A stretch of 42,453 nucleotides of DNA, from contig CAYUBH010000002.1 in NCBI GenBank assembly GCA_964442985.1, positions 1 to 42,453 of the forward strand. The letters run 5' to 3'. This DNA comes from an uncultured Gammaproteobacteria bacterium (lineage in GTDB: Bacteria; Patescibacteriota; Patescibacteriia; Magasanikbacterales; GWA2-37-8). Below the pieces are notes generated by a model, which ran no database searches, was not told the origin of the DNA, and saw only the letters and a program-made list of their open reading frames with translations. Each line of letters starts with the position of its first letter. Within the stretch, counting starts at the first letter, position 1. Positions 3,893 to 24,053 of the stretch are shown piece by piece. Both the position numbers and the translations under genes were made by a program.

Positions 3893-5968
3893 ATGCCTCG
3901 TGAATATCCATTAGATAAAACACGTAATATCGGTATCATGGCGCACATCGACGCTGGTAAAACTACCACGTCTGAACGTGTGCTTTTCTATACCGGTAAA
4001 AAACACAAAATCGGTGAAGTGCACGAAGGTGAAGCTACCATGGACTGGATGGAACAGGAAAAAGAACGTGGTATCACTATCACTTCTGCTGCTACCACTT
4101 GTTTCTGGAAAGGTCATCGTATTAACTTGATCGATACCCCAGGCCACGTGGACTTTACCGTGGAAGTAGAACGCAGTCTTCGCGTCCTCGACGGTGCTGT
4201 GGCTGTGTTTGACGCTTCTCAAGGTGTTGAGCCTCAATCAGAAACTGTTTGGCATCAGGCTGACAAATATAATGTGCCTCGTGTCGCGTTCATCAACAAG
4301 ATGGACAAACTTGGCGCTGATTTTTATATGAGTTTGGCTTCTATCAACGAACGCCTTTCTCCTCATGCTGTTGCTATTCAATTGCCGGTTGGTCAAGCAT
4401 CTGAATTTAGTGCGCTCATCGATCTTATCGAAGAAAAAGCATATAAATTTGACGGTGAAAAGGGTCAGAATATTTCTGAATTCCCAATCCCAGCAGACAT
4501 GGTAGAACAAGTCAAAGAATATCGCGCCAAGCTCATCGAAAAAGTCGCTGAAGCTAACGATGATATGATGGCGCGCTTCCTCGATGGTAAATCATTCTCT
4601 ATCGATGAAATCCGCTCGGCTATCCGCTCGATGGTGCTCAAAGGCGCTATCTATCCGGTGCTCTGTGGTTCAGCGCTTGGTAACATTGGTGTGCAGTTCA
4701 TGCTTGATGCAGTCGTTCACTATTTGCCAGCTCCAACTGACGTGCCAGCTTTGAAAGGCACCAATCCAGACACTGACGCTGAAGAAGTTCGTCACGTTTC
4801 TGATTCGGAGCCTTTTTCCGCTCTTGCTTTCAAAATTGCGACTGACCCGTTCGTGGGTAAACTTATCTTCTTCCGCGTCTATTCTGGTGTTGTTACTGCT
4901 GGTAGTTATGTCTACAACTCCTCAAAAGGCACCAAAGAACGCCTAGGTCGTATCGTACGCTTGCACGCGAACCAACGCGAAGATGTGCAAGAAGTCTACG
5001 CTGGTGAAATCGCTGCCGCTATCGGCCTCAAAGAAGTGACCACTGGTGACACGCTCTGTGACGAAGACAAACCAATTATTTTGGAACGTCCAACCTTTGC
5101 TGAGCCAGTTATCTCGATGGCTATCGAGCCAAAGACTAAAGCCGACCAAGAAAAAATTGGTATGGCGATGCAGAAGTTGGCTGAAGAAGATCCAACTTTC
5201 AAAATCCACACTGACGAAGAAACACTCCAGACCATTATTTCTGGTATGGGTGAATTGCACCTCGACATCTTGGTAGATCGCATGAAGCGTGAATTCAAGG
5301 TGGAAGTAAACGTCGGTGCTCCACAAGTTGCGTATAAGGAAACCATTCGCGCCTCGGCTGAGGGCGAAGGTAAATACATCAAGCAGTCTGGTGGTCGCGG
5401 TCAATACGGTCATTGTTGGCTTAAAGTTGAACCACAAGAAGCTGGTAAAGGTTATGAATTTGTTGATGAAATTAAAGGTGGTGCTATTCCTCGCGAATTC
5501 TTGCCAGCAATTGAAAAAGGTATTAAAGAAGGTTTATCCCGTGGCATCCAAGCTGGTTGCCCAGTGGTAGATATCAAAGTCACTTGTTTCGATGGTTCTT
5601 ACCACGATGTTGACTCCTCCGAAATCGCTTTCAAGATGGCTGGTTCGATGGCTTTTGTCGCCGCTTGTAAAAAAGCTTCCCCAGTTATCATGGAACCTAT
5701 CATGAAAGTGGAAGTCCTCACTCCAGAACAATTCATGGGTGATGTGATTGGTGATTTGAACTCTAAACGTGGTCAAATCTTGGAAATGACTGATCGTGGC
5801 TCGATGAAAGTCGTGCGCGCGATGGTACCACTCGCTAGTATGTTCGGGTACGTTACCAGTTTGCGTTCGATGTCTCAGGGTCGCGCTTCCTCCAGTATGG
5901 AATTCGATCATTACGCTGACGTACCAAACAACGTAGCGGCTCAGATTATTGCTGGTAAACAGAAATAA
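3893..5968 (+). CDS. fusA: elongation factor G
   Basis: 691 aa with [17 protein letters not shown] and NKMD GTPase motifs. Length and position are typical of EF-G. Confidence 0.97.
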
Positions 5969-5974
5969 AACTGT

Positions 5975-6094
5975 CTAACTACACAATTGTTTGAAAAAAC
6001 AGCATAAAAACCACCTGCGGGTGGTTTTTTGCTTCGTACTCGATTGCTCGCGAAAGCAATCTGCGTAATGTTTTTCAAACAATTGTGTAGTTAG
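5975..6094. repeat. 120-bp element bounded by perfect 24-bp inverted repeats (CTAACTACACAATTGTTTGAAAAA / reverse complement)
   Basis: Arms at 5975-5998 and 6071-6094 are exact reverse complements. They enclose the fusA terminator and a second hairpin, GATTGCT-CGCGAA-AGCAATC (6042-6061). Confidence 0.8.
6006..6030 (+). terminator. intrinsic terminator after fusA (bidirectional shape)
   Basis: AAAAA-CCACC-TGCG-GGTGG-TTTTTT. Confidence 0.75.
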
Positions 6095-6142
6095 CTTAGT
6101 GGGGGCTAGCGGCGAGGGGTGACCTGCCTGCCGGTAGGCAGG

Positions 6143-6171
6143 TTGACAAAATGGGGGAAATGGGGTAGTAT
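6143..6171 (+). promoter_or_regulatory. promoter of the island cassette (TTGACA-17-TAGTAT)
   Basis: TTGACA 6143-6148, 17-nt spacer, TAGTAT 6166-6171. Flanked by palindromes ACCTGCC..GGCAGGT (6122-6144) and GCTAATTAGC (6177-6186). Confidence 0.55.
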
Positions 6172-6231
6172 GTTTAGCTAATTAGCCTTATAGCTGTTAG
6201 TTGTTTCTCCACCCCAACAGAGAGGCCTGCC

Positions 6232-6468
6232 ATGCGTCGCCGCACCATCTCGTTTCAGGTTGTTGAGGGAAAGTTTACCGACAAGGGAGAGGTCGTTGAA
6301 AACGGTCTCCACCTCGTTCGCGAGGACGGTCTGCCGTTTGAACAGTCCGCCCCCATGACGGTGTTCGTTCGGAAGGACGGCACGTTTTCCCTCGACATGT
6401 TCGAGGGGGCGACCGGTCGCCTCGAGATCACCTTCGTTCCTGGCGACGGGAAGAAGAGTCATCTCTAG
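6232..6468 (+). CDS. hypothetical protein P1 (78 aa), G+C-rich island
   Basis: ATG is preceded by GAGAGG with a 6-nt spacer. Codon third positions are mostly G/C. TAG stop. No family recognised. Confidence 0.6.
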   Translation: MRRRTISFQVVEGKFTDKGEVVENGLHLVREDGLPFEQSAPMTVFVRKDGTFSLDMFEGATGRLEITFVPGDGKKSHL

Positions 6469-6493
6469 CGGATAGGGGGGGGAGAAACACACC

Positions 6494-6533
6494 TGTCTGG
6501 CGGGGCGCGCTGCACTTCGCGCCTCGTCAGACA
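6494..6533 (+). promoter_or_regulatory. 16-bp GC-rich intercistronic hairpin between P1 and P2
   Basis: TGTCTGGCGGGGCGCG / CGCGCCTCGTCAGACA (two G-U pairs) with an 8-nt loop and no U-run. Confidence 0.5.
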
Positions 6534-6688
6534 CCCCCTCTATATAATGTAGAGAGATTGAACACAAAATGTAGTCGACAGCACTCGCACACTCTAGTTG
6601 CTTTGGGGAATAGGTCCTCAACAGCTGGGTGTCCGAGACATTGTACGACAACAATCAACCGCCTAGGGATAGGCAGGAGCTCGTAGCC

Positions 6689-7147
6689 ATGCGTTTCAGG
6701 GTCAAGGATGGATCGATTGTAGAAGACAAGGAGGCTCCGCAAGAGCCCGAAGGAGCTCGTCGACCGGTCGTTCGACTGGACGGGAATGGAAAGCTCGTCG
6801 TCACCTTCCCGTTCGGCTGGAACGGCGATCTCGACGTTGTGGCCACGCAGGATCCGGCCCAGACAGACAAGGACCTCTCGCTCGTCGAGCCGGGTGACCT
6901 CACCAAGCGGGGCTACCCGATCGACCCGCCGAAGCTCAACTGGGAGCCCTTCAAGCTCCCCAAGGCTCCGGAGGAGGAGCGCCCCGCCATGAGCGGTGGC
7001 TACTGCGGCCCTAGCCAGGCGGAGATCGAGGCCGGCTACGAAGGGTCGATTAACTTGATGGGCAAGGAACCGCCCCCGCTCGCCCGGGCGCCACTCGCCC
7101 GGGACCCGCTCGAGGAGGATGATCTCTGGGAGCGGGGCAACTTCTAG
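6689..7147 (+). CDS. hypothetical protein P2 (152 aa from ATG 6689; longest ORF starts at GTG 6629), G+C-rich island
   Basis: AGGAG lies 9 nt upstream of ATG 6689. The start context gccATGCGT is identical to P1. About 80% of third positions are G/C by my count. Pro/Glu-rich tail. TAG stop. Confidence 0.6.
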   Translation: MRFRVKDGSIVEDKEAPQEPEGARRPVVRLDGNGKLVVTFPFGWNGDLDVVATQDPAQTDKDLSLVEPGDLTKRGYPIDPPKLNWEPFKLPKAPEEERPAMSGGYCGPSQAEIEAGYEGSINLMGKEPPPLARAPLARDPLEEDDLWERGNF

Positions 7148-7180
7148 TCCCAACTGTTAGTACCGTCAGCAATGTTTTTT

Positions 7181-7222
7181 CAGCCCCCGAGCTCACCTGA
7201 GTTTCGGGGGCTGCTGATTTTT
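7181..7222 (+). terminator. intrinsic terminator closing the island cassette
   Basis: CAGCCCCCGA ... TCGGGGGCTG stem with an inner CTCA/TGAG extension, followed by CTGATTTTT. Confidence 0.7.
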
Positions 7223-7255
7223 AGATAAAAACCAATTTTTTCGTCCCAAGCCATC

Positions 7256-7283
7256 TTGACTTTCTCCCCAGAAGTATTAGGAT
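7256..7283 (+). promoter_or_regulatory. candidate promoter (TTGACT-16-TAGGAT)
   Basis: TTGACT 7256-7261, TAGGAT 7278-7283. Lies 37 nt upstream of ATG 7320. Confidence 0.4.
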
Positions 7284-7319
7284 AGCAGGCATCACTCACC
7301 AACGTTTGAACCTTCACGT

Positions 7320-7832
7320 ATGCGACAGAATCAACTTAATCGAACTATCAAACTGATGCGCCGAACAGGGGATAAGGCCCTCATTCTCGATGGCGAGAGC
7401 GATGACATTTTTGTCCTCATGAACCTGGATAATTACGAGGAAATCCTCGATGTACTCGATGTCCCGCCAGCGCCAATAAGCCCGCTCCCAACCAGAATAA
7501 TCGCTGAGGAGTCAAAAAAAGAGCCTATCCAGGAAGAAAATACGATGGAAACCGAGGCGCTCGACGACTATGTCCTCGACGAGGTAATTGACGAAGAGGA
7601 AAAAGCTCAAAAAACAGCTGAAAGTATCCCTGAAATCACCTCGGCCACACCGAGAGCCGAACCGGCAGTGGAAGAAGTAACGATTGTTCCAGTTCCTTTT
7701 GCCGACGGGCAAACACCAATTTCTTTGCTAAAACAAGAGGAAAAAACCGATGATGACGGTAGCGAAGAGGGCTTGGCTGATGTACCAAACGATGGGGAAG
7801 AAGAAAAGTTCTACCTCGAACCAGTAGAATAG
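7320..7832 (+). CDS. acidic protein with YefM/Phd antitoxin-like N-terminal domain and long Asp/Glu-rich tail
   Basis: 170 aa. KALILDGESDDIFVLMNLDNYEEILD resembles E. coli YefM [26 protein letters not shown] (recalled from memory). No adjacent toxin ORF. TAG stop. Confidence 0.45.
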   Translation: MRQNQLNRTIKLMRRTGDKALILDGESDDIFVLMNLDNYEEILDVLDVPPAPISPLPTRIIAEESKKEPIQEENTMETEALDDYVLDEVIDEEEKAQKTAESIPEITSATPRAEPAVEEVTIVPVPFADGQTPISLLKQEEKTDDDGSEEGLADVPNDGEEEKFYLEPVE

Positions 7833-8017: not shown

Positions 8018-9208
8018 ATGGCTGAATTTATTCGGTCCAAACCACACGTGAATATTGGTACCATTGGTCACGTTGACCACGGTAAAACCACTACCACAGC
8101 AGCGATTATGAAAGTGCTCTCCCTTCGTGGGGGTGGTGCGAAAGACATCGGTGTTGATGGTCTTGATAAGAGTCCTGAAAGTAAGGCTCGCGGTATTACT
8201 ATCTCTACAGCACACGTAGAATACGAAACCGAAAAACGCCATTACGCACACGTTGACTGTCCTGGCCACGCTGACTATGTTAAAAACATGATCACTGGTG
8301 CTGCTCAGATGGACGGTGCGATTCTCGTTGTGTCCGCTGCTGACGGCCCTATGCCTCAGACTCGTGAACATATCCTCTTGGCTCACCAAGTCGGTGTTCC
8401 ATACATCGTTGTTTACTTGAACAAAGTTGACATGGTGTCTGATCCTGAACTCGTTGACCTCGTTGAGGCCGAAGTTCGTGATTTATTGACTAAATACGGC
8501 TTCCCTGGCGATAAGAGTCCAGTTGTTCGTGGTTCTTCTATCAAAGCATTGGAAAACCCAACTGACGAAGCAGCTATCAAGCCAATTCTTGATCTCATGA
8601 AGGCTTGTGATGAATATATCCCAGAGCCAACTCGCGCTACTGACAAACCTTTCCTCATGCCAGTTGAAGATGTCTTCTCTATCGAAGGCCGTGGTACTGT
8701 GGTAACTGGTCGTATCGAACGTGGTATCCTCAAAATCAACGATGAAGTTGAAATTGTTGGTCTCCGCGAAGAAAACATGAAGACTGTTGTTACTGGTATC
8801 GAAATGTTCAACAAGCAGTTGAAAGAAGGTCAAGCTGGTGATAACGCCGGTGTTCTTCTCCGTGGTACTAAGAAAGAAGAAGTTGAACGCGGTATGGTCT
8901 TGGCTAAGACTGGTACTGTTAAAGCTCACACTGAGTTTGAAGCTGAAATCTACGTCTTGACTAAAGACGAAGGTGGCCGCCACAAACCTTTCTTCAAAGG
9001 TTACAAACCACAGTTCTACATCCGTACAACTGACGTAACTGGTGAGATCGAACTCCCAGCAGGTACTGAAATGGTTATGCCTGGCGACAACGTTTCTATC
9101 AAAGTGAAACTCATTGTTCCAGTTGCTATCGAAGAAAAGATGAACTTCGCTATTCGCGAAGGTGGTCGCACCGTAGGTTCCGGTGTCGTTGTAAAAATTA
9201 CTAAATAA
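8018..9208 (+). CDS. tuf: elongation factor Tu
   Basis: 396 aa with [17 protein letters not shown] and NKVD motifs. Confidence 0.98.
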
Positions 9209-23036: not shown

Positions 23037-23045
23037 AAAGTACAT

Positions 23046-23074
23046 CCCCCGGCGAGTGTGAGCTCAACCGGGGG
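23046..23074. terminator. hairpin CCCCCGG...CCGGGGG between convergent recO and the oxygenase gene
   Basis: 7-bp GC stem with a 15-nt loop. On the - strand it is followed by a T-rich tract. Confidence 0.4.
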
Positions 23075-23121
23075 CAAAACAGTTTCTCCTAACAGTGTAT
23101 GATCGCCCGAGAAGGCGATTG

Positions 23122-23934
23122 TTAGTATCCGCGCAGGTGTGTGAAATACACCACAGACAGGCGGATGATTTTCTCACTCACTCGCGCCGCCCCATCGATT
23201 TGGCGAACGCGGTGCCACACCGCCTGTACCGGGGGGACATTCGAGGTCATGGTTGCCCGCTCAAGCATCTGACCGGCGAAAATGATCGGCTGGTCGGGTC
23301 GAGAGTTCATTTCGCGCCAAGCTCCAGCCAGCCGTTCGAATTCGAGCCCAGGATGACTCTCGTAGAGCGCGAGCGTCAGAGCGTCCCTGTCAGTATGCTC
23401 TGCGCCGATGATTCGCTTACCATCTGCCCAGCCATCCTCGCGGATGTGCGTGTAGGCGAGGAAGCGGAGCACTGCCTTGTCGGGGTCGAGAAGGTTCGCG
23501 ATGTCAGTCGGCAAATTCGGGGCCAGCTCGCGCGCGAAGCGCTGTATCGCGTCAAACAATCGAGCGCGAATTTCGCGGGACAATCCGATCAGTTTCGCCT
23601 CACTCTCCAAAAATTCCGGATTGCGGAGCTCGAGCATGTCCTCGAGGTGCGGGCGGTAGTGCCAGAAGACCTTGCGGTCGTAGGTACCACCAGTCTCCTT
23701 GGGTTCGCCGGAGCGGATGATGAGTCCGGTGTCGGGGTCGCCAAGAGTGTCGTAATCAAAAGCGACTGGACCGCTCGGAGGACTCTCCACCAGTCGAACA
23801 AATTCCGGAACAGCCCGGTCGATGAGCTCGCTCACGCCAGGGATGGGGAGGAATGAATACGATCGGGTCAAAAAGTCACGAACGATTTCGCTCGGCACGG
23901 GGTGCCTCCAGGGTGGTGCGGGGTTAAAGAGCAC
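23122..23934 (-). CDS. 2-oxoglutarate/Fe(II)-dependent oxygenase superfamily protein
   Basis: 270 aa. Facial triad and 2OG site read as GAEHTDRDALTLAL (HxD) ... VWHRV (distal His) ... RLSVVYF (RxS). GTG start, TAA stop. Confidence 0.8.
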   Translation of the reverse strand: MLFNPAPPWRHPVPSEIVRDFLTRSYSFLPIPGVSELIDRAVPEFVRLVESPPSGPVAFDYDTLGDPDTGLIIRSGEPKETGGTYDRKVFWHYRPHLEDMLELRNPEFLESEAKLIGLSREIRARLFDAIQRFARELAPNLPTDIANLLDPDKAVLRFLAYTHIREDGWADGKRIIGAEHTDRDALTLALYESHPGLEFERLAGAWREMNSRPDQPIIFAGQMLERATMTSNVPPVQAVWHRVRQIDGAARVSEKIIRLSVVYFTHLRGY

Positions 23935-23948
23935 TAAAACTATCGGCT

Positions 23949-23977
23949 ATCCTAGCCGAATAGTGATAGGTTGTCAA
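23949..23977 (-). promoter_or_regulatory. candidate promoter of the oxygenase gene (TTGACA-17-TAGGAT on the - strand)
   Basis: Reverse complements of 23972-23977 and 23949-23954. The palindrome CGGCTA-TCC-TAGCCG overlaps the -10. Only about 8 nt separate the predicted TSS from the GTG. Confidence 0.45.
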
Positions 23978-24053
23978 AATAAAAAACACCCGGAAGACAG
24001 GTGTTCTAAAGTGAGGGGGTGGCGTCCAAGATCCTAGAAGAACCTAGGACGCC
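23976..24053 (-). terminator. tandem hairpins after the small membrane ORF, the second followed by a U-run
   Basis: GGCGTCC...GGACGCC (24021-24053). Then AACACC...GGTGTT (23985-24005), followed on the - strand by TTTTATTTT. Confidence 0.5.

Follow-up and report, generated by a model that had tools for sequence, protein, structure and literature searches.

A GC-rich orphan gene pair in a hotspot of gene turnover between fusA and tuf of Candidatus Magasanikbacteria

Patescibacteria commonly carry genomic islands, and in these bacteria horizontal acquisition is often called for tuf and ribosomal genes (PMC12455944). The described systems closest to the locus reported here are genomic islets in hotspots, small inserts whose content varies between conserved flanks. 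The locus is a two-gene cassette between fusA and tuf, the genes for elongation factors G and Tu (EF-G and EF-Tu). It lies on a contig of 42,453 nt (CAYUBH010000002.1, assembly GCA_964442985.1), the whole of which is hereafter called the window. The window has ~46% G+C and carries the str, S10 and spc ribosomal-protein operons. The nearest named relatives of its organism are Ca. Magasanikbacteria, of the candidate phyla radiation (CPR; Patescibacteria). With slightly better than even confidence, the cassette is read here as an old, vertically inherited orphan accessory unit in a turnover hotspot, in which a GC-rich codon dialect is kept up and whose products would be soluble protein-binding adaptors. 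It is an ordinary kind of element, an orphan accessory islet, with one unexplained feature, the maintenance of a high G+C content at third codon positions (GC3).

The cassette resembles genomic islets in that the content varies between the same conserved flanks (fusA and ORF3-tuf), and in that it combines a deviant composition with orphan genes that have their own promoter and terminator. It differs from them in three respects. It shows no sign of mobility, such as an integrase, a tRNA or direct repeats. Its G+C content is above that of the core, whereas most islands are AT-richer. It has a long vertical history, over which the composition has been kept up and has not ameliorated.

A preliminary description of this DNA, made from the sequence alone, had placed fusA and tuf 2 kb apart and had located a compositional outlier of about 1.1 kb in the gap. 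Both statements are correct. The distance between fusA (3893-5968) and tuf (8018-9208) is 2049 nt. The G+C content of 6100-7150 is 0.600, against a mean of 0.464 (sd 0.030) over all 1050-nt windows of the sliding analysis; local values in the cassette (80 nt) reach 0.76, and the whole span 6100-7222 shows 0.60 vs 0.46. The two open reading frames (ORFs) in this segment, ORF1 (6232-6468, + strand) and ORF2 (6689-7147, + strand), use mostly G/C-ending codons, as had been claimed. Their GC3 values are 0.73 and 0.80, respectively, compared with 0.430 (sd 0.052) in 43 native genes. The excess of 5.9 and 7.1 sd is a deviant composition of the kind that marks an island. The GC-rich zone ends sharply at the cassette borders, and both the 3' end of fusA and ORF3 have normal GC3. 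The gap is not insert throughout: ~0.7 kb of it belongs to ORF3, a native gene of normal G+C with its own promoter and leader.

The comparison of the fusA-tuf spacer among related genomes, proposed in the preliminary description, was informative. The cassette is found in this slot in four lineages: the window, the L007 type, the L002 type and L014. In the window and L007, the slot holds the pair only. In the L002 lineage, the pair is preceded by a further GC-rich module, oX, which has a separate copy of the cassette promoter. In L014, the slot contains an Hpt-like ORF, the pair and a "105-like" ORF. Unrelated genes occupy the slot in L012 (three small ORFs) and in L013 (two small ORFs seen 5' of ORF3; the contig ends before fusA). 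In L022 the slot is empty, with ~210 nt between fusA and ORF3, and fusA-ORF3-tuf, as in L022, is the ground state of the locus. The fusA-ORF3 stretch is a gene-turnover hotspot in this sub-clade of Ca. Magasanikbacteria, and the pair is an accessory insert in it. The presence/absence polymorphism at one site (L022, L012, L013 and L002) is a further property shared with islands. A cassette universal and compositionally ordinary among relatives had been named as a contrary outcome; it is common to the close relatives but is a compositional outlier in all of them.

Some of the other slot genes have features of their own. oX encodes 125 aa with GC3 of 0.76 and lies between fusA and the pair (L002:8735-9300; also L003-L006 and L011). 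It has TFMGD..PP and PID motifs in common with ORF2. The "105-like" family is represented at L012:5563-5880, L013:530-799 and L014:2628-3128, but not in the window; the L012 and L013 members match each other with E of 1e-22. The slot ORF of 211 aa in L014 shows a weak match to the Hpt domain. A 135-aa slot ORF of L012 was considered as a bridge to a broader family and was rejected, being a singleton that shares just an 11-residue motif.

Homologues of ORF1 are confined to the L007-type, L002-type and L014 loci. Those of ORF2 are P0002, P0003 and P0007. When 1.84 billion representatives were searched exhaustively with HMMER, P0007 (E of 4e-9, contig L014) was the one further true homologue. Since L014, whose EF-G is 91% identical to that of the window, has homologues of both ORFs side by side in the same slot, the pair predates the split from L014. 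The L014 sequences are 52% (ORF1), 41% (ORF2) and 43% (native ORF3) identical to those of the window. Among the three close lineages (window, L007 and L002), the synonymous divergence (dS) is 0.21-0.75 for the cassette, 0.34-0.46 for fusA and 0.34-0.89 for ORF3, and a sliding profile of identity along 8-11 kb runs through the cassette with no step. The divergence of the cassette is congruent with that of its flanks, and neither the phylogenetic incongruence nor the donor that would be expected of an island was found. The cassette evolves at the pace of its native neighbor ORF3, and it has been inherited vertically since before the split of lineages with 91% identical EF-G. The horizontally acquired module suggested in the preliminary description is only partly supported: the accessory nature and the foreign look stand, but a recent transfer does not, because the divergence matches the flanks and the pair is present in L014. 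A first entry of the pair into the slot from a GC-richer gene pool is moderately supported.

Both ORFs are true coding genes, on which purifying selection acts. Among the three lineages, the variable sites are distributed over the codon positions as 9/2/20 in ORF1 and 24/23/62 in ORF2. The ratio of nonsynonymous to synonymous divergence (dN/dS) is 0.08-0.24 for ORF1 and 0.19-0.32 for ORF2, and all indels among relatives in the ORFs are multiples of three. The G+C contents by codon position are 0.63/0.38/0.72 in ORF1, and the cassette ORFs follow the order GC3 > GC1 > GC2, which is the usual coding order in GC-rich DNA. Long antisense ORFs are seen on the - strand (6178-6654 and 6527-7153); they are an expected by-product, because the codon usage shuns TTA, CTA and TCA. 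They were rejected as genes on the codon-position variation and on the broken frame opposite ORF1 in L014. GTG at 6629 was rejected as the start of ORF2, as relatives have a 5-nt frame-breaking indel between this GTG and the ATG at 6689.

The synonymous third-position changes were polarised on a three-taxon star. Changes from strong (G or C) to weak (A or T) bases and the reverse changes are 20/133 and 12/34 in the cassette, which corresponds to an equilibrium GC3 (GC3*) of 0.70, against a current GC3 of 0.80. In native genes they are 113/449 and 138/629, with GC3* of 0.41-0.48 and current GC3 of 0.41-0.42. For the weak-to-strong excess in the cassette, the binomial p is 0.008. The small-count estimate of GC3* agrees with the deep comparison with L014, where GC3 is 0.65 for the ORF1 homologue and 0.87-0.88 for the ORF2 homologue, compared with 0.40-0.44 in the flanks. 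Because substitution in the cassette itself is GC-biased and GC3 in L014 is still high, the GC-richness is not the fading signature of an import. The GC-rich codon dialect is maintained, not ameliorated.

The dialect is distinct from that of the native genes. The Lys codons AAG:AAA are used 14:0 in the cassette, while AAA accounts for 78% in native genes; the Glu codons GAG:GAA are used 17:6, while native GAA accounts for 81%. The preferred Pro codon is CCG in the cassette and CCA in native genes. The correlation of relative synonymous codon usage (RSCU) between the cassette and native genes is 0.22. All slot genes, in every lineage and family, have raised GC3 (0.49-0.88 vs 0.24-0.52 in the flanks). 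Two readings fit this rise: a GC-richer accessory gene pool, or a position-linked process such as GC-biased gene conversion (gBGC) or selection of rare codons. The former is favored by the sharp borders and by a second GC-rich gene 16 kb away, and the latter by the maintained substitution bias.

The second GC-rich island of the window is at 23040-23990 (G+C 0.59-0.61). Its gene (23122-23934, - strand) encodes a 270-aa protein similar to 2-oxoglutarate (2OG)-Fe(II) oxygenases (Pfam E of 2.8e-5). GC3 of the gene is 0.69 (z 5.0), and it has its own promoter, TTGACA-17-TAGGAT. Its codon dialect resembles that of the cassette (r = 0.59, and 0.22 with native genes), and its terminator GCCCCCGGTTGAGCTCACACTCGCCGGGGG resembles the cassette terminator CAGCCCCCGAGCTCACCTGAGTTTCGGGGGCTG. 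As a clue to a donor, the protein had no plasmid or phage match, and no identical sequence is on record.

The segment 6123-7223 constitutes a single autonomous predicted transcription unit, from an operator-like palindrome through a terminator. The palindrome CCTGCCT-N6-AGGCAGG (6123-6142, + strand) abuts the -35 box and is a possible operator. It is kept in L014 (CCTGCCT...AGGCAGG) and partly in L007, and a related copy is present at 6661-6677, just 5' of the ribosome-binding site of ORF2. The sigma-70-type promoter TTGACA-17-TAGTAT reported earlier was found at 6143-6171 on the + strand (AAATGGGGGAAATGGGG); it has an invariant spacer and is conserved across lineages. The predicted promoter matches the consensus at 10/12 positions and resembles the host's own consensus promoters. 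Its core, GGTTGACAAA[A/G]TGGGGGAAATGGGGTA (also written GGTTGACAAARTGGGGGAAATGGGGTA), is near-identical even in L014, whose cassette proteins are only 41-52% identical. The promoter and leader together (6143-6231) are 91-98% identical in the three close lineages, and it is a variant of this promoter that precedes the extra oX module in L002. The conserved core and palindrome point to a specific regulator, which would recognise them. At the other end, the GC hairpin with a U-run that had been described as a terminator was also recovered (hairpin 7165-7218, U-run to 7223, + strand; free energy -29.2 kcal/mol, z -4.4), and it is kept in L007 and L002. With the 17-nt spacing, the 10/12 positions and this z value, the unit has the sequence characters of a sigma-70 promoter with an intrinsic terminator, and is predicted to function as such.

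The 5' leader (6172-6231, + strand) contains a palindrome GCTAATTAGC, a C-rich motif TTTCTCCACCCC and the ribosome-binding site GAGAGG (6220-6225), and its fold stability is ordinary (z -0.35). The spacer between the two cistrons (6469-6688, + strand) is structured. It contains a GC hairpin just past the ORF1 stop (6472-6543, core 6494-6533; z -5.4), an invariant TATAAT (6543-6548), a long hairpin 5' of the ORF2 ribosome-binding site (6570-6653; z -3.4), and a small hairpin (6659-6677) adjoining the ribosome-binding site AGGAG, all on the + strand. The long hairpin shows two compensatory pairs among only three sequences. The spacer is 89-94% identical among lineages vs 63-87% at third codon positions. 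Since the identity of the leader and spacer exceeds that of third positions, the non-coding DNA of the cassette is constrained. In L014 the spacer is just 39 nt, which indicates that a ~180-nt structured insert is specific to the clade of the window, L007 and L002. The leader motif TGTTTCTCCACCCC (6202-6215) is 93% complementary to GGGGGGGAGAAACA (6476-6489), just past the ORF1 stop. This complementarity is present in the three close lineages and not in L014, and the two motifs could form a long-range pairing that brackets the ORF1 cistron. Covariance models of Rfam, applied with gathering and with permissive cutoffs, gave no gathering-level match to the leader, the spacer or an inverted repeat upstream of the cassette (best E of 1.6-4, unrelated families).

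ORF1 encodes a soluble, predicted all-beta protein of 78 aa (isoelectric point, pI, 6.1). ORF2 encodes 152 aa (pI 4.6), with an N-terminal beta domain (residues ~1-60) and an acidic, Pro-rich tail. No hydrophobic segment is present in the cassette proteins (apolar runs of at most 5 residues, pI 4.5-6.1). The absence of a recognisable family, remarked on in the preliminary description, was borne out: scans of the ORFs of both strands against Pfam, PHROGs, PADLOC and NCBIfam gave nothing above threshold, and profile searches of PDB, run for each paralogue as well as for a profile that combined 8 sequences, yielded no significant match. The structure prediction that had been proposed was run for both proteins with AlphaFold2. 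It placed beta strands in ORF1 and in residues 1-52 of ORF2, in models of low confidence; with shallow alignments and a predicted local distance difference test score (pLDDT) of 45-46, no reliable model was obtained.

The comparison of ORF1 with the N-terminal domain of ORF2 by hhalign gave E of 7e-5 and a probability of 63% over 54 columns, and the best non-self match of each profile was the other paralogue. ORF1 and the ORF2 N-terminal domain are probably tandem paralogues of an all-beta domain of ~60-70 residues, to judge from this moderate profile similarity. The tail of ORF2 contains the motifs DLSLVEPGDLTKRGYPID, LNWEPF, [IV]TFMGD and LWERGNF-COOH, which are invariant in the three close lineages; [IV]TFMGD is retained in L014 too. 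ORF2 and oX appear to have disordered acidic tails with common short linear motifs, with moderate support. The two paralogues and the motif-bearing oX define a new, very narrow orphan protein family.

Two similarities to known proteins are leads only. Residues 11-60 of ORF1 match DUF3823_N (PF12866) weakly (E of 5e-4), at 20.7 bits, under the Pfam gathering cutoff of 27. The top PDB matches, 4yok and 3hn5 from Bacteroides, are small beta-sandwiches similar to CarboxypepD_reg and are not significant (E of 0.03-0.6). ORF1 and DUF3823-type proteins have the motif P..VFV..DG.F....FEG in common. The DUF3823-type proteins of Bacteroides are lipoproteins that are exported, but ORF1 lacks a signal peptide. 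Residues 25-69 of ORF2 are ~40% identical to single blade-like units of ~50 residues in the BNR_4-like repeat proteins P0008-P0010, with the shared pattern LDxxGNPVxSYxDxxNGDLKxVHCxDP (summed E of 1e-6 to 6e-5 in the 1.84 billion proteins). The likeness appears to be at the level of the motif, with 7-13 bits per unit. ORF2 has one unit and no tandem array, and the Cys pair of the repeat is missing from it.

It may be guessed from these features that both products are soluble in the cytoplasm, have no enzymatic activity and work through binding to other proteins. Self- or hetero-association would be the role of the beta domain, and docking onto a shared partner that of the tail motifs. A regulator recognising the invariant promoter/operator would set the expression, and the structured spacer probably sets the ratio of ORF1 to ORF2. 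The translation GTPases or the ribosome are candidate partners, in view of the fixed neighborhood with EF-G, EF-Tu and the acidic ORF3, a matter of context only.

Several points weigh against reading the cassette as an old accessory unit that came from a GC-richer pool and encodes adaptors. The protein-binding mechanism is drawn from sequence features, as the searches turned up no functionally characterised homologue and the predicted structures are of low confidence, and the support for paralogy is modest. The foreign origin is deduced from composition and presence/absence, and a donor was not found. No flanking direct repeats were detected by repeat analysis and no tRNA lies within 20 kb; the cassette itself has no integrase or transposase, its ORFs being the two orphans only, although recombinases were not searched across the window. 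GC3* is calculated from 32 polarised weak/strong changes, and the slot-wide rise in GC3 fits a position-linked process as well as an import. This last point belongs to an unlikely alternative, in which the genes are native, either fast-evolving or born in place, and the high G+C is made locally, so that composition is silent on foreign origin. The local route would be gBGC at a recombination hotspot that has the ultra-conserved fusA and tuf on either side, or selection for rare G/C-ending codons. The raised GC3 of every slot gene, the GC-biased substitution in the cassette, the high GC3 of L014 after deep divergence and the failure to find a donor in any set searched all agree with it, and PMC4450053 contains a proposal of gBGC for bacteria. 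On the other hand, the enrichment stops sharply at the borders, the empty slot of L022 means that content was gained at some point, and the GC-rich gene 16 kb off, in another context and with a like dialect, is better explained by a shared GC-rich source pool. An elaboration of the local route is improbable: within the slot as a compartment, G/C-ending codons would be actively driven or selected, either through biased gene conversion or because anti-adapted codons are favored, and the pair would be regulators docking on translation GTPases or the ribosome, forming with ORF3 a CPR-specific layer of translation control. A recent import, from a phage or from a GC-rich host of an episymbiont, is more doubtful still. 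Foreign codon usage, an own promoter and terminator, and a CPR bacterium as the carrier are in its favor, as is the frequency of islands in Patescibacteria (PMC12455944). It is largely refuted by the L014 locus, and the cassette is in the same slot in four lineages with divergence equal to the flanks. The promoter is like the host's own, no mobility genes or att-like repeats are seen at the cassette, and no relative was found in IMG/VR (with both protein alignments and the promoter), GenBank phages or PLSDB, which leaves the suggested phage or high-GC-host donor without a trace in these sets. A set of 5.8 billion proteins gave no match outside the clade, the 1.84-billion set gave there only motif-level matches to three large repeat proteins, and a metagenome scan with the ORF1 alignment gave nothing in that collection.

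Small conflict modules typically populate variable hotspots between core genes. There is little likelihood that the cassette is one of them, be it a toxin-antitoxin-like pair or a phage-defence or anti-defence pair. It is similar to type II toxin-antitoxin operons in its two small co-transcribed genes, in the acidic and partly disordered second product, common among antitoxins, and in the palindrome at the promoter. The very conserved promoter/operator would suggest autoregulation, and the content of the hotspot differs between close relatives. It is dissimilar in that no family match was found in PADLOC, Pfam, NCBIfam or PHROGs, in that there is no basic partner (ORF1 has pI 6.1), and in that the products look paralogous, unlike a toxin and its antitoxin. 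The long vertical retention under purifying selection also differs from the rapid turnover of defence genes. An artefact is very improbable, whether an assembly chimera, GC-rich contamination, or a region that is non-coding or codes on the antisense strand and has its + strand ORFs by accident. A compositional jump in a contig of a metagenome-assembled genome (MAG) is a classic warning of a chimera, and the antisense ORFs are long. However, the chimera that had been offered as a refutation is rejected by a Logan assembly of SRR12229868, identical at 100% over 6313-7462 including the exact ORF2 protein, and by the cassettes of four lineages. Assemblies of ~10 samples from ENA, JGI, NCBI and Logan contain orthologous cassettes in which both junctions are complete, and the junctions are thus spanned in independent assemblies and samples. 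The codon-position variation and dN/dS favor the + frames, L014 has an interrupted frame opposite ORF1, and Rfam has no match.

The old accessory unit documents a hotspot of gene turnover in the fusA-tuf interval. It indicates that a compositional outlier in a highly conserved operon can be old and stable, and neither a fresh import nor an assembly error, which is a caution for composition-based island callers on CPR genomes. The puzzle is how GC3 of 0.7-0.9 has long been held in a genome of 46% G+C. Given population data, the slot could become a tractable case for separating gBGC from codon-choice selection in bacteria.

The downstream boundary of the cassette is ORF3 (7320-7832, + strand; 170 aa, acidic, pI ~4), which is outside the GC island with GC3 of 0.46-0.48. 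It has its own promoter at 7256-7283 on the + strand. ORF3 is directly 5' of tuf in most of the fetched loci that are long enough, in a clade with EF-Tu 81-94% identical. The start at 7320 is favored by the N-terminus kept in L012, L013, L014 and L022; automatic gene calls begin ORF3 at 7356, 12 codons too far downstream. The protein has an N-terminal motif TGDKA..D..S..F.M.L..YE and an invariant C-terminal EEEKFYLEP[VL]E. An identity as a Phd/YefM/RelB-type antitoxin is not claimed, since the Pfam E is only 0.04-0.09 in three close lineages and PDB has no match.

The upstream boundary is a perfect 24-bp inverted repeat (arms 5975-5998 and 6071-6094). Between its arms lie the hairpin of the fusA terminator (6006-6029) and another hairpin. 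The region 5975-6094 is predicted to form a three-way RNA fold (-60.6 kcal/mol, z -11.5). The repeat is present in the L007 lineage too, where the arms differ by a single compensatory change, from CTAAC/GTTAG to CTCAC/GTGAG. L002 lacks the right arm and has the oX module in its place. The left arm is the native 3' flank of fusA in all lineages, a point that bears on the attC site of an integron, for which the repeat was considered. A miniature inverted-repeat transposable element was rejected, as the repeat is single-copy in the window and its left arm is native.

A public MAG (L011/L004; GCA_964478235.1, CAYZGX010000002.1) is titled "uncultured Gammaproteobacteria bacterium". It has the str operon and the slot, its EF-G protein is ~97% identical to that of the window, and its named relatives are Ca. 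Magasanikbacteria only. Its taxonomic label is probably wrong. Elsewhere in the window, the most divergent syntenic segment is a 103-aa ORF at 2487-2798, between a UvrD-like gene and rpsL. Its nucleotide identity is 68-82%, vs 85-97% in the surroundings.

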